A stretch of 20,000 nucleotides of DNA from IMG/VR virus record IMGVR_UViG_3300043105_000228. One strand, written 5' to 3'. Within the stretch, counting starts at the first letter, position 1; each line of letters starts with the position of its first letter. Below the pieces are notes generated by a model. It worked only from the letters and a program-made list of their open reading frames with translations, was not told where the DNA came from and ran no database searches. The stretch is from an uncultured virus (IMG/VR IMGVR_UViG_3300043105_000228). Taxonomy: Duplodnaviria > Heunggongvirae > Uroviricota > Caudoviricetes. Positions 1,477 to 18,719 of this stretch are shown in pieces. A program made the translations under genes and the position numbers.

Positions 1477-2454
1477 TTAGAGATATTTCTTATTCTCATC
1501 ATTAGCCTGAATGAGCTCGTTTACACACCTAACAATCTTAGGGTAATCACTCTCAGGAAGTGATGACAAGTAATATCTTCTGTTGCTATCTTTACCCTGT
1601 CCATCATCGCGTCTTCTTACACGGATATAGTTCTCCAGAATCTCACGGATCTCAGATTTACTCATATTCTCCATTGTTAAGAATACCCATGATGTGATGT
1701 CGTTAAACAACTTCTTCTGAAGTTCGTTAAACGACTTGTAGCGGTCTTTTCTTTCCTGCAATGCATATCCAATGACATACTTATAGTCTCCCTCATCAAA
1801 AAGGAATTCTATTGTCGTATCGAATGGAACTGCAAGCTCTGCACCATAGTGATAAAGTACATCAAATACTCCTCTCACTCTGCTATAGCCGCCATACTTA
1901 GCCGAATCCTTTGTAGGCATATTGGCTAATAAATCGAACGCAACGTTCTCTGGGATATTGCGTTTCTTTGCCTTCTTCATTCTCTTCTTAAGAATTACAT
2001 TGGCAAGCTCGTACAACTCTGTTGGCTCTTCGTACTGATTCTCTTCTTCAGTAGCATGCTCTGCATTGTACTTCTGAATATCTGAGATAATCTCGAATAA
2101 TATAATCGGGAAATACTCAATATTCTCTATTTCTTCAACCCCGAACTTATCAATGAATTTTGTTAAATACTTGATGAAATCAGGACCGAGTTCACCTGCG
2201 AATTTATCATAGCAGGCATTCTTTGTATCAGCTATCTGCTGAACGTTGGTTTTGTGACCATTCTTTAATAACCAGTCAATCGTAACTGGAAGTATTGCAA
2301 TCAGACTATCGAAGTAATCCTTCTTCAATGCCTTCTTACTGTCAAAGTAGTCACCGTACTCTTTTTTGTGCTTCTTTAATGAGGCACTGGCAAATTCCTT
2401 TACTTCTGATGGAATATTGCCACCATTGTTGTTACCGTTGTGTCTTCTTGACAT
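1477..2454 (-). CDS. Hypothetical phage protein (325 aa, predicted helical) immediately downstream of the tubulin gene
   Basis: Long ORF with AGGAGG RBS; no recognisable motif. Confidence 0.85.
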   Translation of the reverse strand: MSRRHNGNNNGGNIPSEVKEFASASLKKHKKEYGDYFDSKKALKKDYFDSLIAILPVTIDWLLKNGHKTNVQQIADTKNACYDKFAGELGPDFIKYLTKFIDKFGVEEIENIEYFPIILFEIISDIQKYNAEHATEEENQYEEPTELYELANVILKKRMKKAKKRNIPENVAFDLLANMPTKDSAKYGGYSRVRGVFDVLYHYGAELAVPFDTTIEFLFDEGDYKYVIGYALQERKDRYKSFNELQKKLFNDITSWVFLTMENMSKSEIREILENYIRVRRRDDGQGKDSNRRYYLSSLPESDYPKIVRCVNELIQANDENKKYL

Positions 2455-2503
2455 CTTTAATTCCTCCTATTTTTTATTTATGCCTGTAAATATTGCATCA
2501 TTA

Positions 2504-2550
2504 ACAGAACAAAGCATTTTACCTTTGTCCAAGATAATGCCTTGTTCTGC
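2504..2550 (-). other. Long RNA hairpin downstream of the tubulin gene
   Basis: Minus strand reads GCAGAACAAGGCA-TTATCTT-GGACA-AAGGTAA-AA-TGCTTTGTTCTGT; about 20 bp of stem, the three non-Watson-Crick pairs are G:U on this strand, plus a 2-nt bulge. Confidence 0.6.
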
Positions 2551-2563
2551 TACTTTTAAATAT

Positions 2564-3715
2564 TTACTTGAATTCGTCGAAGATAGCACGAAGATTAACT
2601 TCACCTGATGCATTTGCCTCTGATGGTGCTTTTCTTGATGAATTCATTCTCTCTAATTCATCTTTTGTTACTGCAACTTCAGATGCCTCTGTTGCATTCT
2701 TCTTAGCTTCTACTTCGTCTACTCTGTCACGAATCTTGTCAACCCTGTCACTTATCTTTGAAAGACCTGTGAGAATAAGGATGACATTATTCTGAAGTGT
2801 CTTCTCAGCATTAACTGCTGTATGAAGGAACTCCTCTGATGGCTCACCGATGAATGCTCTTACCTTATTAATCTGAGAATCAAATTTCTCATTTAACTTA
2901 GCTGAGAGATTTGTGATGAGACCTGTCTGATATACAACCCCATCACGCTGCAACTCGGCATGTGCTGAAGACTTAATCTTGTCGATAAGTAAATCTTCAA
3001 TATCTACCTCGTCAACGTCCTTCTCTTTAATATCGAGAAGTGGTGCAATAAACAACCTACCGGGTGTTGAGAGCAGCGTCTTCATATCCTTCTCGTCAAT
3101 AGAATCATATGGAGTAGGATTGTTGTACCAGCACTGGATAACTCTGATGCATTCAACTATCTCATCATTAACTGTCTCGAGAATCTTGTAAGCTGTCATC
3201 TTTGCAAAGTTGTTATTGTCAAAGATCATGTATGTTGGATCTTCCAAAACATCATACAGCTCATGAATGTAACCGAGAGTATTTACCTGTGTTGTATATC
3301 CCTCTGTGAGCTTAGGCATAACACCTGTTAAGATAACATTGAGCTCCATACCGTCTGGAGTGCTAAATGACTTCTTGACGATCTTGCTCATAAGTGGTGC
3401 GATTCCTGAACCAGAACCTCCACCCATTGATGAAACGATAACGATTACTTCTTTATTAGACATGAACTCTGCAAACTCATTATCTCTCATTAAATCCATT
3501 ATAGATGCCTCGAGGAATTTCTTTGCGGTTTCTCTATTCTTACCGCTACCTTCTGTGTCACCTACACATTTCTTTGGAATATCTGATGGGAGTGTAGACA
3601 AATCTGTCTCAGATGTATTAATAGCAAATACATCACAACCTGTCAACTTTTCATGGCATAAACTTGCCACCTGATTTCCACAATTTCCTATTCCGATTAC
3701 TCCTACATTTAACAT
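2564..3715 (-). CDS. phuZ: Phage tubulin/FtsZ-family GTPase (PhuZ/TubZ-like)
   Basis: N-terminal VGVIGIGNCGNQ, tubulin signature GGGSGSG, INT and GSGKNR motifs, T7-loop-like IDEKD, C-terminal coiled coil and short hydrophobic tail; AAGGAGG RBS; no dcw-cluster neighbours. Confidence 0.9.
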   Translation of the reverse strand: MLNVGVIGIGNCGNQVASLCHEKLTGCDVFAINTSETDLSTLPSDIPKKCVGDTEGSGKNRETAKKFLEASIMDLMRDNEFAEFMSNKEVIVIVSSMGGGSGSGIAPLMSKIVKKSFSTPDGMELNVILTGVMPKLTEGYTTQVNTLGYIHELYDVLEDPTYMIFDNNNFAKMTAYKILETVNDEIVECIRVIQCWYNNPTPYDSIDEKDMKTLLSTPGRLFIAPLLDIKEKDVDEVDIEDLLIDKIKSSAHAELQRDGVVYQTGLITNLSAKLNEKFDSQINKVRAFIGEPSEEFLHTAVNAEKTLQNNVILILTGLSKISDRVDKIRDRVDEVEAKKNATEASEVAVTKDELERMNSSRKAPSEANASGEVNLRAIFDEFK

Positions 3716-3748
3716 GAAATGTACCTCCTTGTATATAAATAATTTTGT

Positions 3749-3808
3749 TGGTTTAACCGTATTGATATTATATAACCTACTTGGCTTTTTATCTGATGGT
3801 TAAACCAT
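3749..3808. promoter_or_regulatory. Pair of palindromic GGTTWAACC boxes flanking the putative tubulin promoter
   Basis: TGGTTTAACC at 3749-3758 and ATGGTTAAACCAT at 3796-3808 are mutual inverted repeats; TATATAAT lies between them on the minus strand. Confidence 0.4.
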
Positions 3809-3817
3809 AAATGCAAA

Positions 3818-3922
3818 TTAAAAGGCAAGGGTAAAAGATGTAAATCTCTTGCCCTTGCAGATACGGAATTTAAACAGAGAGGTGATAACCACAAACGACC
3901 AGAAACATTTGAGGTTTCCACT
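3818..3922 (-). ncRNA. Candidate phage small RNA 1 (about 105 nt) with an anti-SD-like tract
   Basis: AACA-N6-TA promoter at 3933-3922 just after an upstream terminator; 5' hairpin; ATCACCTC tract; ends in 15-bp hairpin 3858-3825 followed by CTTTT; no RBS-led ORF. Confidence 0.5.
3825..3858 (-). terminator. Intrinsic terminator-like hairpin
   Basis: GCAAGGGCAAGAGAT-TTAC-ATCTTTTACCCTTGC followed by CTTTTAATTT on the minus strand. Confidence 0.65.
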
Positions 3923-3933
3923 ATAAAAATGTT
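3922..3933 (-). promoter_or_regulatory. Putative phage late promoter AACA-ttttta-TA
   Basis: Exact match to the AR9-type AACA-N6-TA motif in intergenic DNA. Confidence 0.5.
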
Positions 3934-3944
3934 GGGTTGAAAGA

Positions 3945-3974
3945 GCAGAGATTAGAATAAATTCTAATCTCTGC
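3945..3974 (-). terminator. Intrinsic terminator after the 156-aa gene
   Basis: 14-bp perfect inverted repeat GCAGAGATTAGAAT/ATTCTAATCTCTGC, then TCTTT on the minus strand. Confidence 0.7.
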
Positions 3975-3998
3975 ATAAATCTCCCGTTAACGAAATCT

Positions 3999-4469
3999 CT
4001 ATTTAATACAAATTATCGCTGTTTTAGCGTCATAAAGTTTCTTAGCAAAAGTATATATTGGTGTAGCTTCAGCTGATGGTATATCAAAAGCCTCTGGAGT
4101 TTTTCCAGAATAGCATCTAAAGCTTTGTCCATTATAAGTCTTTTCCTTAATCATAATATACTTTGAATTCGTTACCTGATAAACCTGAATAGCAATTCCT
4201 TCAATGTATTCTAGGTTATTCTGCAAATTCACAGAATCCATATAATTCCTAAAAATGCATACGGTATAATTATCATACTTCCGTTTTGTAGTATGAAGCT
4301 GATAGCATACCACAGTATATTCACCTTTTTCAATATGGTGCTTTTGTATTTTATCGAGTAGTTTTTTCGTTTCAGATACACTAGTATTTGCACGCTCTTT
4401 ATCATCTAATGATAGATAATAAACGAACGCATATCTACTAACTTCCGTCATTAATTCCTGATAGGTCAT
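3999..4469 (-). CDS. Hypothetical protein (156 aa)
   Basis: ORF with GAGGTG RBS; followed by a terminator. Confidence 0.8.
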   Translation of the reverse strand: MTYQELMTEVSRYAFVYYLSLDDKERANTSVSETKKLLDKIQKHHIEKGEYTVVCYQLHTTKRKYDNYTVCIFRNYMDSVNLQNNLEYIEGIAIQVYQVTNSKYIMIKEKTYNGQSFRCYSGKTPEAFDIPSAEATPIYTFAKKLYDAKTAIICIK

Positions 4470-4491
4470 GGGAATTTCACCTCTGCTTTCT

Positions 4492-4938
4492 CTAAAAATG
4501 CGTAATTACTGAGCTCTGGATGATTTCGTTGGAATCTAGCATTTCTCTAATCTTTGGTTCATCACACCAGCATCCATTTAAATCAAAATAGTACTCTATG
4601 CGATAATTAAGTCTAGATATTAATATACTTTCATTAAACCTCTTATAGAAAAGTCTAAAATACCAACCATTTCCAATTGTAAATACTTCCAAAGCAACCA
4701 GTTCTTTTTGCCATTTTGGTATATCAATCATTGCTTTTTCTATCGTCTTGTATATATGGATAAAACACCCAACGGGTTTATACTTATCTAGTCGTATATC
4801 TTTCTCATATTTCGTTAGTATGACCATTGTAAATTCTGATTTTTTGCATTTTAAGCATTCTTCATAAACTTCTCTTAATGTAATTATAGGATCATTATGA
4901 ATAGATTCACTATTGATACGATATACCATAACTTTCAA
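4492..4938 (-). CDS. Hypothetical protein (about 145-148 aa; ATG at 4929 is the likelier start)
   Basis: ORF; GGGGTGA RBS at 4945-4939 is better spaced for ATG 4929 than for TTG 4938. Confidence 0.75.
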   Translation of the reverse strand: MKVMVYRINSESIHNDPIITLREVYEECLKCKKSEFTMVILTKYEKDIRLDKYKPVGCFIHIYKTIEKAMIDIPKWQKELVALEVFTIGNGWYFRLFYKRFNESILISRLNYRIEYYFDLNGCWCDEPKIREMLDSNEIIQSSVITHF

Positions 4939-4957
4939 TCACCCCGTATTTGATTTT

Positions 4958-4991
4958 AAAAAAGATGGATAAGCAAAAACGCTTATCCATC
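4958..4991 (-). terminator. Intrinsic terminator after the HU-like gene
   Basis: 11-bp perfect inverted repeat GATGGATAAGC/GCTTATCCATC plus TTTTTT on the minus strand. Confidence 0.8.
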
Positions 4992-5004
4992 ACCATTGAC
5001 TTTA

Positions 5005-5547
5005 TTAGCCTTTCTTCTTCCTTGTCTTCAGATAATCTGGAGCTGGAGATGAAGCTGTAAGCACCTTGTAAGGCTTGGTTGTTGTCTCCCATACACCCAT
5101 ATCTTCACCTGTCTTAGGATTTCTAACATGAGACTCCTTAACAGTCTTATCTTTCTGAGCAAGTGCAATGCTGCCACGGAAGTCCTCTTTAGGTAAGAAC
5201 TCGAATCTGTTGTGAGCATCAATATACTCATAGATAGATGTAGCAATGAGCTCATAAAGTCCATCAACGTTATCAATCTCAAATGATGGATCCATAACTG
5301 CCTGTGCATCTGCCTTATCTACGCCTGCTTTCTCAAGCTGCTTCTTCAAGAACTTACGGAACTCCTTAGCTATGAATACGTCCTTTACCTCAACGAGTTC
5401 CTTATTCTTTGTAACTGCAACCTTTGTAGCAAACTCTGTATCGTTTACCAATGCTGATAAAAGCTCGTTAAAATTTTTCTTGCTAAATCTAGCTGTTCCT
5501 TTTTCTGGTGTAATAGCCTCAAGTGTTTCTTTTACTGATTTTGACAT
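5005..5547 (-). CDS. HU/IHF-like DNA-binding protein, enlarged (180 aa)
   Basis: RNPKTGE arm-tip motif typical of HU/IHF, preceded by helical and beta segments; basic C-terminus; AGGAGG RBS. Confidence 0.7.
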   Translation of the reverse strand: MSKSVKETLEAITPEKGTARFSKKNFNELLSALVNDTEFATKVAVTKNKELVEVKDVFIAKEFRKFLKKQLEKAGVDKADAQAVMDPSFEIDNVDGLYELIATSIYEYIDAHNRFEFLPKEDFRGSIALAQKDKTVKESHVRNPKTGEDMGVWETTTKPYKVLTASSPAPDYLKTRKKKG

Positions 5548-5657
5548 TTGAAAGTCCTCCTATTCTTTTTTCGGTTTTTCTTTGCATCTCGTTTTGCCAC
5601 CTTTTCAAAGAAAAGTGCGAGATCAAAGTTTTCAGGGTTATACTTTACTTTCGCCAT
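5532..5657 (-). CDS. Small basic protein (41 aa, MAKVKYNPENF...)
   Basis: ATG 5657 with AAGGAGTG RBS inside the 67-aa track ORF; overlaps the start of the HU-like gene. Confidence 0.55.
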   Translation of the reverse strand: MAKVKYNPENFDLALFFEKVAKRDAKKNRKKNRRTFKCQNQ

Positions 5658-5704
5658 AAGTATCACTCCTTTACTTATTAAGGGGTTCCTCTTGTAATTT
5701 ATTA

Positions 5705-6148
5705 CTAATAGAAAAACCCCGATGAGTAACGCCACTCATTAATATTATTTCTTATCTCTTCTAAAATTTCAATAGAAGGAATAGAAACGTCTGCGTCATA
5801 TGCAGAATACAGCATTGCTAATGCTCCATGCAAATATGACTTCTCTTTTTTCGTTACACTTGACTTCATCAGCAGATGTTCTACCTCATTTATCATTCCA
5901 GATATTTCATTATTAGCATATCCATATGAATAAGCTAGTTCATATCTCTCTGGAACATAGATATTTCCTGCTTGTACCAACATATTCTCTTTATCTTTTG
6001 TAAACTGGTTTTCTTTATCAGTCTTTAAGATAAGTCCTGTTGATAATTGATTCGACGCCAAATATAACTCCATGAATCTCTCCACGATTTTCTTTTTGTG
6101 GTGAAATGCCACCATCTTGTTATCGATGATGGCGATGTAATACTTCAT
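5705..6148 (-). CDS. Hypothetical protein (147 aa); N-terminus resembles the paralog family at 15772-18196
   Basis: ORF; MVAFHHKKKIVERF resembles LYAYTNKKKYAKRF; AGGTG RBS. Confidence 0.8.
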   Translation of the reverse strand: MKYYIAIIDNKMVAFHHKKKIVERFMELYLASNQLSTGLILKTDKENQFTKDKENMLVQAGNIYVPERYELAYSYGYANNEISGMINEVEHLLMKSSVTKKEKSYLHGALAMLYSAYDADVSIPSIEILEEIRNNINEWRYSSGFFY

Positions 6149-6157
6149 AAAATGTCA

Positions 6158-6595
6158 TCACCTACCTACTGTTGATACGTTATGAGCTAACCCATAAACT
6201 GTATTCATCTTCTGCAAAGTAGCAGGCTTGATTTGATATTTTATGCTGTCTATTGATAATATTGCTACTATCAATGACATTACTAGTTTGGCTATTATTG
6301 CACATATTGGCAATAAATCATCCAAAGCATCAATTACTCTGTCAAAGAAATTAGTACCCTCCATTTCATAAATCAATCTACGTCTAATTTCCTTTTCAGA
6401 TTCTGCTGTTGAATAGAATCCGCCTCCTTTCTTTAAATTTCGTTTTGCCTTCTTTTTAGCTTTCCGTTCTTCCCGCTTGAGGTCTGCCTGCATAAATTGG
6501 ATTTCCTCAATTATGCTGAGATATTTTCTATCAAGGCTCTCATCTATCTCAGCGAGAAATTCTTCGGGATGAGCCTTTTTCTTTTTCTTGCTCAC
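6158..6595 (-). CDS. Hypothetical membrane-associated coiled-coil protein (145 aa)
   Basis: GTG start with AGGAGGGAG RBS; hydrophobic segment LLPICAIIAKLVMSLIVAILSI. Confidence 0.8.
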   Translation of the reverse strand: MSKKKKKAHPEEFLAEIDESLDRKYLSIIEEIQFMQADLKREERKAKKKAKRNLKKGGGFYSTAESEKEIRRRLIYEMEGTNFFDRVIDALDDLLPICAIIAKLVMSLIVAILSIDSIKYQIKPATLQKMNTVYGLAHNVSTVGR

Positions 6596-6631
6596 TTCTT
6601 TTTCTCCCTCCTTTCGAATTTCTACAAAGTG

Positions 6632-6640
6632 ATAATATAT
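6632..6640 (-). promoter_or_regulatory. Putative phage early promoter ATATATTAT
   Basis: Recurrent motif upstream of minus-strand transcription units (also 12916-12924 and 14649-14657). Confidence 0.5.
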
Positions 6641-6677
6641 TAATAAAGTAAATATTGCCTTATGAAATACAGGGTTT

Positions 6678-6716
6678 AAAAAGAGTACAGATGAAAATAC
6701 ATCTGTACTCTTATTT
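6678..6716. terminator. Intrinsic terminator, possibly bidirectional
   Basis: 13-bp perfect inverted repeat AAGAGTACAGATG/CATCTGTACTCTT with A/T tracts on both sides, directly after the stop at 6717. Confidence 0.8.
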
Positions 6717-7205
6717 TTATCCTTGATTTGCTACATTACGTTCTGCAATTTCTCTATTCAATTGCTTTACCATAGCGATAAGCTCTGTAGTAGCTGTATT
6801 CACAATATACTTCTCAATGTATTCTGAATTTACAATCATATTGCTTGGATTAGCAAATAATTCAGCTTTAAGAGAATTATGTATTGTGGTCGATATCTCT
6901 ACGATATCTTTATCGAGTTTTCTTAAAATTTCATATGGTTGATTTAGTGATAGGTGTGTTGACCTTATCTGAAGTATCTCAACCTTTATCATGCTGTCAA
7001 TTATCAGAAGTAAATTGGTTGTATCAACAATTTTCTCATTGAGTGAACCATTCTTAACAGCATCAGTATGAGCATTGATATTTTTGGTCTTAGCACGAAT
7101 AAAATCTAGTAACGTGTTAAGTACCATAAGCAAATAAATAATTGCTACGAAAACACCAACGACTATTCCTATGATTTTTAGGACATAGAGTACATTAGCT
7201 ACCAA
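6717..7205 (-). CDS. Hypothetical protein with N-terminal transmembrane helix (162 aa)
   Basis: Hydrophobic IIGIVVGVFVAIIYLLMVL; overlaps the tmk stop. Confidence 0.8.
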   Translation of the reverse strand: MVANVLYVLKIIGIVVGVFVAIIYLLMVLNTLLDFIRAKTKNINAHTDAVKNGSLNEKIVDTTNLLLIIDSMIKVEILQIRSTHLSLNQPYEILRKLDKDIVEISTTIHNSLKAELFANPSNMIVNSEYIEKYIVNTATTELIAMVKQLNREIAERNVANQG

Positions 7206-8657: not shown

Positions 8658-11345
8658 ATGGCGAAAGATTCAACTAGGTTAATAGACCCAGTTGCTCGAC
8701 TTTATACAGATATAATTACGATTTTAAATTCATTGGAAATCAAATATCCAAATAAAGCAGAAGAAGCTGAGGATATTACATCTAAAGCCGCTGGTACTAG
8801 ATATATGCTTGCATATTATATGAAGGATACATTTTATCTTTATGATGATTATTCACGTGAAGATTATATTAATCTTGGTATTGAAGATGAAGATGAGATA
8901 GCAATGTATTTAAAGGACAGAACACTTGTACCACAGGTTAAACGAGATGCTCTACTTGCAATAAGAAGAGCTCGTGAACTAGATGAATATGTAGAGCTAA
9001 ATAATTATTATCGAATGCTGTATGGTCTTCCTGACTTAGATGATACTGAGTTCTATTATGTAACTGAAGAATTATCTAAGCAATTAAATATTCCTACTGA
9101 TATGCCTGTCCATGAAATACAGGACCAACTTGGTAGCTACTATATAAGTCAGCTCCAATATGTAGGATACATAGATGAACTCTATGAAAAACACCAGAAA
9201 GACTATCTAAAGCATTTAGGTACAAATCGAATACCAATAGAAACTTCTCGAAATGGAAGTAGCTTCTCAATACTTTCAGTAAATCAAAGTGATGTGCTAG
9301 AAAGTACATATCGAGAGTTTGTAAGATGCTACGAATCTGCACGAAATTACTTTATGTCAGTAATTTATGTCTATGAATATAGAGACCTCATTCCTTATTA
9401 TGATAATTTCATTGCACTTTGCATATTTGTAATGGCAATACAACAGGTGTCAATGAGAGGCATAAGGAATGCTACTGATAGAGAGTTTTATGATGAGTAC
9501 ATGGTAAGATTACTTCATGAAACTTATGGTGTGCCTTTCTACAATAGTGCGGATACAGCCACAAAGAAACTTATAGTTCAGAATATGAACTTGCTCGTCC
9601 AGAATAAAGCAACCAATAAGGTATTCTTAGATATTGCTTCTATTCTTGGATTTAACGAGATTACAATTTACCAGTATTATCTGGTAAAAGAACAGCAGTT
9701 TGGAAGTGATGGTCGACCTGTAATCAAAAAGAAAAATAAGGTTGATAGCTTAACAGGAAAAACTACTGAGGTGTATGATACTGAGAACATGTTCGATGTA
9801 CATTTCCAGAAAGTAGATATTACTGAAAGCAATATAAAAGATTCACTAACCAATAGCCTTAATCGAGTAGACTATTATGATGTCATATATTATGACCCTA
9901 TGTGGTGGGAAGATGATGAACTTAATAGTGAGATTTGGGATACTGCTTATAATTACATGGAGACGAAATACTTTGGTGTTACTATTCCATACAGAATGAC
10001 TGAGTTGCTTCTTCAATCAAATATTCTTTTGAGAATGATTATGGAGAAGAATGCTGATTTGATTTCGGTAGGAATTCAATTACCAAAGATTACTACTAAA
10101 GAGGTAAGCTTACCTACAGTTGTAGTTTTATTCTTAGCTCTTATGAGCAAGAAATTAGGAATAAGTGGAACCATTACCACAGTACCAAGTCAGCTTATTC
10201 ACATACTTGAAGTTACAGAACAATGCGTGCATCATGAAGCTGAAGAGATGGAAGTCTTACAGTTTAACTTTGATGCATTCTCTCCTCAAAGAATACAAGA
10301 AACGATTGCTATTCTAAAGGATACTCTTACAGAAAAACATTATCGAGTAGTGAATGGTCATGATGTTGACTTGAATGATGATGGTACCCAGAATACATTT
10401 GCCCCTACTCATAAAATCCAGTGGACAATTACTACTGATGATTTGGACGAGTTAGAGGGATATTTATTACAGCTGACTATTCCAACAGCTGAGAAAAAAG
10501 AAAAGGTTAAAGCATTAAATGCTATATATGATAATATTGAGTCACTATACTACTTCTTATCATATCAGATGTCTATGGCTACAAGCATGGAAGATTATGA
10601 TGCAATAAAGAAGTTTTATGACACTGCTTTCTACTCTCATGAAACAGCAGAAGCTTATAAGATTACTGATGAGGATGGAGTTGAAAGATGTGCTGAAACC
10701 TTTGAAGAATATCTATACTATAAAGACAAAGATTTGTATTCATTTGTGCAGAATGTAGCAGATGAGCAAATTTATGAATACATTGAGCATATCATTTACA
10801 AGCTTGAGGAATACATAAGTAGTGTAAATTACCTCTACGTAATGAATGAGGATACATCTCCTTTAGCTGAATTACTTGATATACTATTAAAATTCTTTAA
10901 GTCTTATATCATTGATTTTGTTAATATGACTTCACTGATGATAATAGACTGGGATATGGAAAATACAACACGATTCTTTGATTATGTCCATACATGTGCT
11001 AAGACTGATAAAATAGATGAGGCAATAGCTGCAAATATTTCAGATGCTATTACTAAGTATATTTCTCATATTGATGCTGAGGACACAGCATTAACACTAT
11101 CAGACTACTATGAAGTACATGGTACAGTGAATCTTGCTGATGAAGCTTATTCTGAGTTATTAGATGAAATATTATGCTTCACAAAATCAGCCAAACTTGA
11201 AGATAGACTGAATATAATGGACGGAACTAACAAAATAAATGAGACAACCCAAGTTGAAGAACATCTTTGCTTTGAAGATTCTATAACTTGGCATGAAGTT
11301 GTCAAAGATGATAACGAAAATGAGGAAGAGGAGGACGACGATTAA
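8658..11345 (+). CDS. Large virion structural protein, probable baseplate wedge-type (895 aa)
   Basis: Long acidic Tyr-rich ORF; NNYYRMLYGLP, QNKATNKVFLDI and FFKSY segments recall jumbo-myophage baseplate proteins (from memory, not searched); AGGAAAGGAG RBS; late-type promoter. Confidence 0.65.
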   Translation: MAKDSTRLIDPVARLYTDIITILNSLEIKYPNKAEEAEDITSKAAGTRYMLAYYMKDTFYLYDDYSREDYINLGIEDEDEIAMYLKDRTLVPQVKRDALLAIRRARELDEYVELNNYYRMLYGLPDLDDTEFYYVTEELSKQLNIPTDMPVHEIQDQLGSYYISQLQYVGYIDELYEKHQKDYLKHLGTNRIPIETSRNGSSFSILSVNQSDVLESTYREFVRCYESARNYFMSVIYVYEYRDLIPYYDNFIALCIFVMAIQQVSMRGIRNATDREFYDEYMVRLLHETYGVPFYNSADTATKKLIVQNMNLLVQNKATNKVFLDIASILGFNEITIYQYYLVKEQQFGSDGRPVIKKKNKVDSLTGKTTEVYDTENMFDVHFQKVDITESNIKDSLTNSLNRVDYYDVIYYDPMWWEDDELNSEIWDTAYNYMETKYFGVTIPYRMTELLLQSNILLRMIMEKNADLISVGIQLPKITTKEVSLPTVVVLFLALMSKKLGISGTITTVPSQLIHILEVTEQCVHHEAEEMEVLQFNFDAFSPQRIQETIAILKDTLTEKHYRVVNGHDVDLNDDGTQNTFAPTHKIQWTITTDDLDELEGYLLQLTIPTAEKKEKVKALNAIYDNIESLYYFLSYQMSMATSMEDYDAIKKFYDTAFYSHETAEAYKITDEDGVERCAETFEEYLYYKDKDLYSFVQNVADEQIYEYIEHIIYKLEEYISSVNYLYVMNEDTSPLAELLDILLKFFKSYIIDFVNMTSLMIIDWDMENTTRFFDYVHTCAKTDKIDEAIAANISDAITKYISHIDAEDTALTLSDYYEVHGTVNLADEAYSELLDEILCFTKSAKLEDRLNIMDGTNKINETTQVEEHLCFEDSITWHEVVKDDNENEEEEDDD

Positions 11346-11346
11346 A

Positions 11347-12345
11347 ATGTCTAATATTAGAGAATTACAAGATAATATGTCTTTTAAAGACTCGCTAAAT
11401 AATGCCCCAAGAAGAAAACCCGGTATCTTCGTAGATACGGAGGTTATTGCAGGTTATGGATATCATAACCCCGGAAGATTTGGGTTATCATACCTCGATG
11501 AGGTTATTATGCCAGCACAGAGAAACACAACACCTATCTCAGGTGTACAGCAGTTATTTGAGATGATGTTCGGTGTTCAGGGACCAATTACAATCAACAC
11601 CATGTATCAAGCACATGGAATAGGATTACCTGATGAGGCAGCTGTTCCATCATTCTTGATTCCAGAAAATCCTGTACTTAATGGACCAGCTACATTGAAA
11701 GAATCAATCTATGCAAATGGTCATTTATGCCAGTTATTTGGACTTGGTATTACAGGTACAGCAGAGAACAACATCACGGTTCACAAGGTAGGATACCGTG
11801 AAACTGATATTGAGATGGTTGTACACACAACAGATGGTGATATGGATGCTATTATGCTTCCATTCAGATATACAGAGTCAGAGCTCGACCCTAATGAAAG
11901 ACAGATGTATTTCGGAAAGAAGGTTGATGCTTCGACTGGTAAGACAGGATATTATTTAAAGAGATTTGAATCATTCCCTGAGATTAAACACATCTGGAGA
12001 TCATCTGATATTGAAGGAACAAAGGCAATTGAGACTGTTGCAACAGATGATACTATTTGGGATCAGTCTCGTGATGATGCTTTGAAGTCACTTGTTGAGA
12101 TTCATTTCACAATTTCATCAGATGATTTGAAAGAGTATTTCAACTATAAGATGGACCAGCCTGAGGCTGCAAGATTTAATACTATTGCATTATTCTCAGG
12201 AAGGTACTCAGAAGTAGGCAAGTCAGATACTGACCAGTTTGGTGATTACACGAACGTAACACTATTCTCAAAGTTAAACATCCCTACAGAGCCAATGAGC
12301 CTTACAAAGGATTTAGAGTACATCTACAGAATTTATGGTTCATGA
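11347..12345 (+). CDS. Probable virion structural/baseplate protein (332 aa from ATG 11347)
   Basis: GAGGAGG RBS before ATG 11347, 1 nt after the upstream stop; YYLKRF...ARFNTIALFSG...LFSKLN...YIYRIY architecture resembles jumbo-phage baseplate proteins (from memory). Confidence 0.65.
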   Translation: MSNIRELQDNMSFKDSLNNAPRRKPGIFVDTEVIAGYGYHNPGRFGLSYLDEVIMPAQRNTTPISGVQQLFEMMFGVQGPITINTMYQAHGIGLPDEAAVPSFLIPENPVLNGPATLKESIYANGHLCQLFGLGITGTAENNITVHKVGYRETDIEMVVHTTDGDMDAIMLPFRYTESELDPNERQMYFGKKVDASTGKTGYYLKRFESFPEIKHIWRSSDIEGTKAIETVATDDTIWDQSRDDALKSLVEIHFTISSDDLKEYFNYKMDQPEAARFNTIALFSGRYSEVGKSDTDQFGDYTNVTLFSKLNIPTEPMSLTKDLEYIYRIYGS

Positions 12346-12378
12346 TTATAAAAAATAAAGAGAGCTTAACAATTGATT

Positions 12379-12519
12379 AGATGGATTGAGCAAATACATC
12401 TAATCCGGGGAAGATGGGTTTCCATGTGACATCTTCCCCACCCCGTAAAATTGAAATTGTTTGTTATACAGAGAAAAAAGCAAGTTTGGTTTTTTGTACC
12501 AAACTTGCTTTTCTTTTTT
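12379..12519 (+). ncRNA. Candidate structured small RNA 2, or structured 3' UTR (about 140 nt)
   Basis: AACA-attgat-TA at 12368-12379; tandem hairpins 12375-12405 and 12407-12439; terminator 12476-12519. Confidence 0.4.
12474..12519. terminator. Bidirectional intrinsic terminator between convergent genes
   Basis: 15-bp inverted repeat AAAAGCAAGTTTGGT/ACCAAACTTGCTTTT with T-tracts on both strands. Confidence 0.85.
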
Positions 12520-12530
12520 GTCGTTGCATA

Positions 12531-14733: not shown

Positions 14734-15735
14734 ATGACTGAAATAGTTCTTGATGCTTCTTTAGTGAAACGCCCTAAAACAGCGGATTCTATATTAGATA
14801 CACTGGAAGATATTGATGACAACTACGATAGTTCACCATCATTACCTTCCCTTCATAGACCAGTAAAGGAAAAGAAGAAGAAATCTGAAGTTGATGAGTT
14901 GTCGGAGATTTCACAAGAGTCTACTGATGAATGGCTCGATACTGTGGCAAGTTTCAAAAGAGAACCTATTAAATGCTCTAAGCATAGTAGTAGCGGATTA
15001 TTTGATTACTTGGAAACGGGTGATAAAAAGAAGAAAAAGAAGAAGAAAAATAAGGATAAAGAAGGAATAGACTATAAGAAGGAATTTGAACCTGAGATAA
15101 ATTTCCTGCAAAATACCCTCGAGGAACAGACAAGATTTGCCAATAATCTTCAAAGAAGATATGACTCTCTTGAAAATTCTAAGAGTGCGGCAAGAGGAGT
15201 AGGAAAGTTTACTACTGACTTAATTAGTCAGATAAATCAGGCAAGAGGAACTTCTGTCCAATTAGTCAATTCTATTATCAGTACAAAGAAAACCATTGCT
15301 GACCTTCAAATGAAGGAGAGAAAGGAATTTGGTGCTCAGCTAGATACAGGAGAAGATATGGGATTATATTCTGCTAACTTCTTAAAGAAAGTGCTTAGCC
15401 AAAGTAGAAGTGACCTTGCAGCATATGGCGGAGATGTTACTCCAATGGACGGTGATGCAGATGACATCTTTAAAAATTTATCTGATGATTTGGAGCAAAG
15501 TGGTGAGGATAGACCAGAAGAAGTTGAGAAATACATGAAGTATGGAACCAACGTAGAGATTATTGCTGAAGTTGATAACGAGACAAATGAATATGAGCTT
15601 GTGGCAGTAGATAAAACAACTGGTGAAAAAATAGATGACTATCCATCACCTGTAGTTGCCAAGTTAGAGGTAAATAGAAGTACAGGAATGGCATCTGACG
15701 AATACTATAATAAATACCGTGTAAAATGGGTATAA
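14734..15735 (+). CDS. Hypothetical phage protein with coiled coil and Lys-rich patch (333 aa)
   Basis: Long ORF, GAAGGTG RBS, own promoter motif and terminator. Confidence 0.85.
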   Translation: MTEIVLDASLVKRPKTADSILDTLEDIDDNYDSSPSLPSLHRPVKEKKKKSEVDELSEISQESTDEWLDTVASFKREPIKCSKHSSSGLFDYLETGDKKKKKKKKNKDKEGIDYKKEFEPEINFLQNTLEEQTRFANNLQRRYDSLENSKSAARGVGKFTTDLISQINQARGTSVQLVNSIISTKKTIADLQMKERKEFGAQLDTGEDMGLYSANFLKKVLSQSRSDLAAYGGDVTPMDGDADDIFKNLSDDLEQSGEDRPEEVEKYMKYGTNVEIIAEVDNETNEYELVAVDKTTGEKIDDYPSPVVAKLEVNRSTGMASDEYYNKYRVKWV

Positions 15736-18439: not shown

Positions 18440-18464
18440 AAATAAATTAATGGAGGTGATGATT

Positions 18465-18719
18465 ATGCCAAAGAAATCATCTGCGCTGAAAATAGTAAAA
18501 CAAGCATATCCAAATATCATGGCAGATATAAAAGAAGTTTTGGATTCAAATGATATTCAGTGTAAAAACTCGCGGTCAGAGATAGTGGCAATAGGCGCTA
18601 AAAAGAAAAGCGTTAAAAATTTAATCTCCTCATTAATAACTGAAGAAACCGATTATAAGCTTCTATTAGACGTAGTGGAAGCTAAGGGAAATGTGTATAT
18701 TCGAAAGAAATGTAGTTAA
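18465..18719 (+). CDS. Small basic hypothetical protein (84 aa from ATG 18465)
   Basis: GGAGGTG RBS at 18452-18458 fits ATG 18465 rather than 18450. Confidence 0.75.
   Translation: MPKKSSALKIVKQAYPNIMADIKEVLDSNDIQCKNSRSEIVAIGAKKKSVKNLISSLITEETDYKLLLDVVEAKGNVYIRKKCS

Follow-up and report, generated by a model that had tools for sequence, protein, structure and literature searches.

We analysed a gene-free stretch of about 110 bases on the minus strand, just upstream of a phage tubulin gene, within a 20,000-nt piece of DNA from an uncultured member of the Caudoviricetes (IMG/VR record IMGVR_UViG_3300043105_000228; hereafter the window, to which all positions refer). The stretch, which we call the unit, sits directly upstream of the tubulin gene, as an earlier note on this DNA had stated. 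The tubulin/FtsZ assignment comes from profile matches in Pfam (PF00091, E = 1.6e-15) and PHROG ("tubulin PhuZ", 5.5e-10); most neighbours of the tubulin gene received no functional assignment from these two collections. We tentatively interpret the unit as a discrete, orphan, late non-coding small RNA (sRNA) of an AR9-like jumbo phage, a reading to which we give somewhat less than an even chance. The features of the region, in the order in which they would be transcribed, are:

3999-4469, minus strand: upstream gene, 156 amino acids, unknown function, with its Shine-Dalgarno (SD) sequence AGAGGUGA at 4485-4478
3974-3945, minus strand: perfect hairpin forming the upstream boundary of the unit, with 14-nt arms that are 100% complementary and no U-tract
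3933-3922, minus strand: AACA-TTTTTA-TA core AACATTTTTATA, an exact match to the AR9 late core, with predicted +1 at A3922
3921-3882, minus strand: imperfect 5' hairpin of 40 nt, with 14 bp in three segments and an 8-nt loop (-14.2 kcal/mol), beginning at +2
3886-3879, minus strand: 8-mer AUCACCUC (as DNA, ATCACCTC), equal to 8 nt of a 16S rRNA tail 10-mer
3881-3859, minus strand: CU-rich linker CUCUCUGUUUAAAUUCCGUAUCU, 23 nt, predicted to be single-stranded, the candidate seed
3858-3815, minus strand: intrinsic terminator made up of an interrupted stem of 14 bp (3858-3825) and the CUUUUAAUUU behind it, called from its fold and U-tract
3775-3758, minus strand: early-type promoter of tubulin, TTATATAATAT-N6-G (N6 = caatac), with TTATATAATAT at 3775-3765 and predicted +1 at G3758
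3730-3724, minus strand: AAGGAGG of tubulin, followed by the tubulin ATG at 3715
2564-3715, minus strand: phage tubulin (PhuZ/TubZ-like) gene, 383 amino acids, with Pfam and PHROG profile matches

The earlier note had described a bounded minus-strand unit, and the anatomy fits a self-contained one: a core motif, a hairpin at +2, an unpaired stretch and an intrinsic terminator follow one another as listed. The exact AACA-ttttta-TA and the 3' terminator hairpin lay where they had been reported, and so did the upstream element, which had been called a terminator and is a perfect hairpin lacking a U-tract. This first hairpin begins 24 nt past the stop of gene 3999-4469 and resembles in type the hairpins found behind the tubulin-upstream gene in relatives. 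The core AACATTTTTATA has a single exact copy in the whole window. Since the plus-strand copy of the terminator at 3858-3815 has no U-tract behind it, this terminator is predicted to work on the minus strand only. The unit is thereby flanked by two terminators, 115 nt apart, that enclose a promoter core, as one would lay out a separate transcription unit. The early-type promoter of tubulin stands outside the unit, about 40 nt past its terminator; tubulin has its own promoter and therefore, judging by this arrangement, does not depend on the unit.

The predicted fold of the unit was markedly more stable than that of shuffled sequence (114 nt, -31.8 kcal/mol, z = -4.60; 0/200 shuffles as good). 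The 5' part alone reached -14.2 kcal/mol on the minus strand (z = -3.41; 0/200 shuffles), as compared with -9.0 kcal/mol for its plus-strand complement (z = -1.30; 17/200 shuffles), and the 5' structure is specific to the minus strand because of its G-U pairs. In the 63-nt 5' part, the minimum free energy structure makes up 0.76 of the ensemble and consists of 14 bp (GUGG.AACC.CAAAUG / CGUUUG.GGUU.UCAC). A shorter 5' stem, GGAAAC/GTTTCT, had been proposed previously; these letters are present, but the predicted pairing is the longer 14-bp hairpin instead, which uses the UCAC of the proposed anti-SD sequence.

The unit is non-coding. Two minus-strand frames are open across the spacer, one of 52 codons (ORF52, 3976-3818) and one of 70 codons (ORF70), and their codon log-odds (-0.21 and -0.22, respectively) fell below those of all 104 same-length pieces of real genes (minimum 0.069) and inside the off-frame range. 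Pfam returned no match for ORF52 or ORF70, and PHROG none for ORF52, the sole open reading frame (ORF) queried there; three 5-residue words from the ORF52 product were shared with none of 5.8 billion protein clusters. No Rfam family matched the unit at the gathering score, a permissive scan yielding 13 matches far below the cut-offs (best, 17 bits), and ARAGORN detected neither a tRNA nor a tmRNA. On sequence grounds we therefore regard the unit as a real module that is strand-specific, non-coding and bounded by terminators, and whose late-promoter core is exact but poor in context.

The promoter assignment draws on the family to which the phage belongs. We found 173 tubulin relatives (E <= 0.001), one of them labelled Caudoviricetes, and many lie on contigs of 150-280 kb, so that the source of the window is, by this comparison, to be taken as an uncultured jumbo phage; its relatives are AR9-like jumbo phages of ~250 kb, and it is probably as large as they are. 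Two of them, both complete, were used repeatedly below: G001 (254 kb, tubulin 51% identical) and G002. For AR9 itself, a Bacillus jumbo phage, the cited portions of two papers give a late consensus of AACA-N6-TA/G, the last base being the start, and an early consensus of AAATATATATTAT-N6-G (PMC5312081); a non-virion polymerase that reads a short core on the template strand via gp226 (PMC9209446); RNA polymerases that stop at predicted terminators; and seven late promoters that drive antisense RNAs (PMC5312081/PMC9209446).

Counterparts of these features were present in the relatives of the window phage. An early motif of TTATATATTAT type occurs upstream of tubulin in relatives and also in other spacers of the window, and TATATATTAT in G001 was intergenic in 27/30 cases. 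In G001, many genes are further preceded, at a distance of 20-70 nt, by a clear AAAAACA-N6-TA(A) motif, and of the 70 hits scoring >=10 with a position weight matrix (PWM) of this late motif, 40 had a same-strand gene start no more than 120 nt downstream. Spaced by N6 or N7, the motif is also kept upstream of a ~335-residue gene across divergent relatives. A query with AR9 gp226 retrieved a homologue in G002 (E = 1.5e-7, 26% identity), and the G002 protein in turn retrieved a two-piece homologue in G001 (E = 8.8e-83 and 3.3e-60). Because AR9-type early and late motifs and a gp226-like subunit are all found in relatives, a late promoter at this position is a reasonable proposal; the use of the AR9 late-promoter rule in the earlier note was justified, and the phage family uses AR9-type transcription. 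In G001 the gp226-like homologue occupies two open frames separated by about 1.6 kb (C1:107807-108616 and 110225-110935, plus strand), and the gene may be interrupted by an intron or homing element.

The position of the core relative to the 5' hairpin adds to this. Among the 12 AACA-N6-T[AG] sites of the window, the core at 3933-3922 has the most stable downstream 45 nt (-14.2 kcal/mol), and 2.3% of background 45-mers reach -12.2 kcal/mol; we estimate the positional coincidence of core and hairpin to be worth roughly p = 0.01-0.05, not more. A host sigma-70 promoter was considered for the unit and rejected: by eye there is just a -10-like TATAGT with no usable -35, and the single nearby hit of a sigma-70 scan (3990-3961) falls within the first hairpin.

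If the unit is an sRNA, the non-virion RNA polymerase of the phage would read the AACA-N6-TA late-type core and produce a minus-strand RNA of about 105-108 nt, starting at A3922 and ending at the U-tailed terminator near 3815-3818, its 5' hairpin and its terminator hairpin being separated by 23 unpaired CU-rich bases. Once made, this RNA would most likely act in trans late in infection, its UCACCUCUCUG region pairing with purine-rich ribosome-binding sites of the AGAGGUGA type, and the best candidate target in the window would be the adjoining early gene 3999-4469. We infer the activity of this promoter copy, the ends of the RNA and every such functional step from the sequence.

A specific mechanism had been suggested by the earlier note, namely that the middle of the unit carries a 16S-like anti-SD. 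The stretch reads as it had been quoted (ATCACCTC at 3886-3879, with the complement GAGGTG-N10-ACG) and the identity is real: AUCACCUC coincides with 8 bases of the 16S tail 10-mer, which we took from that note, the metagenome-assembled genome (MAG) of the single binned relative being without a 16S gene. A match of at least 8 bases to this 10-mer occurred in 0.4% of 20,000 dinucleotide shuffles of the unit (p about 0.004). The bases CUCUCUG and those following them are predicted to be unpaired (probability 0.96 or higher), and opening the whole 8-mer would cost about 3.3 kcal/mol. The neatest contiguous complement in the window is of 8 bp, between UCACCUCU of the unit and the SD AGAGGUGA of gene 3999-4469.

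We compared the predicted pairing of the seed at 25 start regions of the window, which are phage sequence with no host sequence among them, with that of 300 shuffled seeds. The best duplexes were formed with the 18450/18465 gene (-20.9 kcal/mol), 5705-6148 (-19.8), 3999-4469 (-18.1) and the gene at 14734 (-17.1), and the mean over all start regions was ordinary (-12.9 vs -12.2 +/- 0.8 kcal/mol). The three in-window sites named previously (the leader of the gene at 14734, the site at 18452 and the GAGGTGA upstream of 4469) do exist, but their pairing is no better than that of shuffled seeds.

Other results weigh against the sRNA interpretation. At the promoter, the core is preceded by CAACCC and does not have the A-tract that is present at about 85% of the sites in G001; with the matrix built from G001 sites it scores 1.5, as compared with a training median of 16.1, and ranks 67 of about 40,000 window positions. 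Bare cores are also common, with 19 AACA-N6-TW sites per 20-kb window and approximately one core per 880 nt in shuffled upstream regions of relatives. The best PWM match in the window (10.3) occurs elsewhere, upstream of a virion-protein gene at 8658. In the proposed seed, the 8-mer has CCUCU as its anti-SD core in place of CCUCC, and half of it, UCAC, is taken up by pairing at the foot of the 5' hairpin, with a probability of 0.01-0.10 of being free. Among targets, the best value of -20.9 kcal/mol was equalled by 19% of the shuffled seeds, and no perfect complement of 9 nt or longer was found at the start regions of the window.

The comparative evidence points in the same direction. Isolated GenBank phages gave no DNA or protein match to the window, and the tubulin protein as a single query matched nothing in IMG/VR, in JGI/ENA metagenome contigs or in GTDB genomes; a search with a tubulin alignment recovered 64 + 17 + 1 relative loci, all of <=59% identity. 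Closer tubulins exist as proteins (P0001, 95% identical, and a group at ~66%), and their DNA lies outside the locus comparisons, which cover relatives with tubulin identity <=59%. Within that range the conservation beside tubulin genes, which the earlier note had named as a check, was not seen: the unit was absent upstream of tubulin in 42 inspected and 55 distinct scanned relative regions. The best BLAST match of the unit in the complete G001 and G002 genomes had an E of 0.05, and three IMG/VR seed scans returned 9, 9 and at least 118 loci, all of them chance matches of <=36 nt. A single-sequence covariance model run over 585 kb from 55 sources, including complete G001, detected no homologue, its best non-self hits (25 and 24 bits) being ordinary gene-end terminators.

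The unit also occupies a rearrangement and mosaic junction, where junk is expected. In relatives, the order is the ~335-residue gene, one hairpin, an early promoter and then tubulin, with gaps mostly of 130-180 nt. The window homologue of the ~335-residue gene (11293-12345; 49.6% identity, E = 6e-101) is on the opposite strand 7.6 kb away, while the gene downstream of tubulin (1477-2454) is syntenic with relatives, and the spacer therefore lies at a rearrangement point. Of the genes within 3999-7205, six were tested and none had a counterpart in the vicinity of tubulin in relatives. For gene 3999-4469, neither IMG/VR nor the G001 and G002 genomes yielded a relative, and its protein has two entries in a large protein collection, itself and a 56% relative (P0122); the identical protein is carried by seven contigs, the longest of 101,400 nt. 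The longest contig is 18,545 nt for both P0001 and P0122, and judging from this equal size alone they probably share one contig; if they do, the spacer or its vicinity would seem to hold a sharp mosaic boundary. As compared with loci L001-L097, both the ~335-residue homologue and a gene for an 895-residue virion protein are found 5-8 kb off on the opposite strand, and the break in synteny is consistent with an inversion of roughly 3.8-12.5 kb.

RNA-derived contigs provided partial coverage of the locus. We checked contigs of three animal-gut metatranscriptome libraries (X1-X3) and one DNA library over 2400-4700. The metatranscriptome contigs match 2568-3525 of tubulin and 3984-4202 at gene 3999-4469, identically or nearly so, and leave 3815-3933 uncovered; with contigs only and a depth of 2-5, this is uninformative either way on the unit. 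One of the gut metatranscriptome libraries also holds an 85%-identical tubulin piece, and a freshwater-labelled DNA run (X5) contains near-identical 151-nt pieces within 2568-4202. A search of sequencing runs returned 10 runs, each with a small share of the sampled words. The sole tubulin relative in the genome collection (L097, 45% identity) is carried by a 136-kb contig that was binned into the MAG of an uncultured member of the Lachnospiraceae, which hints weakly at a host group for the phage family.

The unit could instead be passive junction DNA, namely a 3'-untranslated tail, a tandem terminator or a recombination scar, in which the core and the 8-mer are coincidental and no initiation takes place; at most, the second, U-tailed terminator would back up the first hairpin and shield the tubulin early promoter from upstream transcription. 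The relatives, with their ~335-residue gene directly upstream of tubulin and with only a terminator and an early promoter between, would fit such an origin, as would the mosaic boundary implied by a 95% tubulin relative having just a 56% homologue of 3999-4469 on apparently the same contig, the weak match to the extended promoter consensus, the frequency of the bare core and the conservation of the unit nowhere that was searched. Nevertheless, a strand-specific and well-defined 5' hairpin that begins exactly at the predicted +2, and two full terminators 115 nt apart around a promoter core, amount to more order than a scar needs, and we consider passive DNA somewhat less likely than a discrete RNA. 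A different role for the same core would be that of a second, late promoter of tubulin, with the terminator acting as an attenuator in a late leader and yielding a short RNA by-product derived from the 5' untranslated region. AR9 genes whose expression is continuous are preceded by an early as well as a late promoter (PMC5312081, in the portion cited), and the portion of PMC11512511 cited here reports short start-to-stop units mapped by ONT-cappable-seq upstream of 201phi2-1 genes, where early termination accounts for 8/11 sRNAs. In a few relatives (the L001 group, L017, L020/21, the L029 clade and L034), an AACA-N6-T[AG] core likewise precedes the early promoter of tubulin. As a family-wide design, this arrangement had to be rejected: the core is not enriched in the upstream regions of 55 relatives (20 sense hits vs 16.3 +/- 4.1 in shuffled sequence). 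Together with the strong U-tailed terminator and the separate early promoter that stand between core and tubulin, this makes a leader or attenuator distinctly unlikely.

The remaining alternatives assign the signals to the other strand or to a protein. On the plus strand, GAGGTGAT (3879-3886) could be the relic ribosome-binding site of a lost gene, or AACAGAGAGGTG (3873-3884) a late-type core for an antisense RNA. The window holds one other copy of ATCACCTC/TCACCTCC, at 18452-18460, where a real ribosome-binding site lies on the complementary strand, and the relic reading of GAGGTGAT is for this reason kept under consideration. The AACAGAGAGGTG core (AACA-N6-TG) moreover scores 4.6 with the G001 PWM, as compared with 1.5 for the minus-strand core, and antisense RNAs from late promoters have the AR9 precedent mentioned above. 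Yet no ATG, GTG or TTG occurs 5-12 nt after GAGGTGAT, no plus-strand ORF follows, the 5' part folds no better than shuffles on that strand, and a plus-strand terminator is absent, so that we regard a plus-strand signal as improbable. We note that AACAGAGAGGTG overlaps the complement of the proposed anti-SD, and that an RNA made from it would be antisense both to the unit and to the 3' end of 3999-4469. A 52-residue protein from the ORF at 3976-3818 (minus strand) has in its favour a frame open across the whole unit and a weak SD-like GGGAG 4 nt before its ATG. Against it stand a spacing shorter than the 7-10 nt seen in the genes of the window, the passage of the frame through two strong hairpins, codon usage below that of every real-gene piece and the lack of any Pfam or PHROG family or of any relative in the 5.8 billion protein clusters, and we attach very little probability to it.

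The preferred reading is therefore still that of a late, orphan sRNA. The anti-SD (16S-mimic) function is a reasonable guess at its mechanism if the RNA exists; it is speculative, and neither accessibility, target statistics nor conservation lends it support. A broader proposition, that AR9-like gut jumbo phages carry a class of late sRNAs which imitate the anti-SD tail of 16S rRNA and silence early phage messages (such as 3999-4469, SD AGAGGUGA) or host messages with GAGGUGA-type ribosome-binding sites, appears to us quite doubtful. If it were true, 16S-imitating sRNAs would constitute a translational early-to-late switch beside the transcriptional switch made by two polymerases. Should the RNA itself be real, it would be one of the first proposals of a small regulatory RNA in the AR9/PBS1-like branch of jumbo phages, and would hint that the timing of gene expression is set by translation besides the two RNA polymerases. 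At present it is a well-formed, single-copy prediction in an uncultured phage, and the family-level AR9-type early and late motifs, together with the gp226-like subunit, are perhaps more useful than the unit itself for annotating ~250-kb gut phages.

Some further observations concern the surroundings of the unit and units of comparable appearance. The early promoter of tubulin is bracketed by a perfect 10-nt inverted repeat, TGGTTTAACC/GGTTAAACCA (3749-3758 and 3798-3807), with one arm starting from the predicted +1, the other at approximately -40 to -49 and each arm nearly palindromic, a possible operator to which a dimeric regulator would bind. The spacer showed neither tandem nor centromere-like repeats. 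The ORF listed from the ATG at 18450 (plus strand) more likely starts at the ATG at 18465, which has GGAGGTGAT (18452-18460) at good spacing, no SD being present for 18450. A second orphan layout occurs at 12368-12530 (plus strand), right after the stop of gene 11293-12345: AACAATTGATTA with a hairpin from the predicted +1, then a second hairpin of 10 bp (GGGGAAGAUG/CAUCUUCCCC), a stretch CCCCACCCCG... left unpaired (CCCCACCCC) and a long, strong, A/U-flanked two-way terminator. Its fold has a z of -5.15, its promoter is poor with the G001 matrix (rank 439), and its internal 52-codon ORF is non-coding (-0.29).

A tRNA cluster in G001 is driven by a consensus late promoter. A second such promoter precedes a stretch of about 325 nt (C1:183040-183365, minus strand; L107 ~3040-3365) in which all frames are interrupted by stops; it contains a self-complementary pair (UUAUCCUCC...GGAGGAUAA), hairpins, a CCUCCC stretch and a terminator, and ends just before the late promoter of the next gene. 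Rfam returned nothing for this ~325-nt stretch, and we consider it a candidate non-coding RNA.

Of the systems to which the unit can be compared, the late transcription units of AR9 share the most with it. The unit has an exact AACA-N6-TA core in which the last A is the predicted start; the AR9-type early motif is common to its phage family, a late motif of like form occurs in a complete relative, and relatives carry a gp226-like specificity subunit. AR9 operons end at hairpin terminators, as does the unit. The unit differs in that its core does not have the A-tract of the G001 consensus. In the cited portions of PMC5312081 and PMC9209446, AR9 late promoters are mapped upstream of genes or in antisense orientation to them, without mention of an orphan sRNA. 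Uracil in the DNA is needed in AR9, whereas the window phage is known from 20 kb of sequence alone.

The sRNAs of chimalliviruses provide a second comparison. For 201phi2-1, the cited portion of PMC11512511 reports 11 sRNAs identified by long-read transcriptomics, 8 of them from early termination in 5' leaders; the function of these and of the phiKZ sRNA is given there as unknown. The 201phi2-1 sRNA001-011 and the phiKZ sRNA upstream of gp182 are shorter than 250 nt, with a terminator soon after the start and a position in the spacer upstream of a gene, and the unit is alike in each respect. They were seen as transcripts, and one is kept by position across four phages, whereas the unit is predicted and is not conserved in relatives of <=59% tubulin identity; the phage lineage and the promoter type differ as well.

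A literature search on jumbo-phage sRNAs found no description of an anti-SD sRNA of a jumbo phage. In Firmicutes, sRNAs with C-rich or anti-SD seeds (RoxS/RsaE, Rfam RF01820; the loops of RNAIII) use an unpaired pyrimidine stretch to cover SD sequences. The unit differs from RoxS/RsaE-like sRNAs in having no Rfam match, a seed that is CU-rich (CCUCU) instead of a C-run and is half buried, and no target above chance. What it would share with them is the proposed working principle, together with a layout in which a 5' hairpin, a seed and a terminator follow one another.

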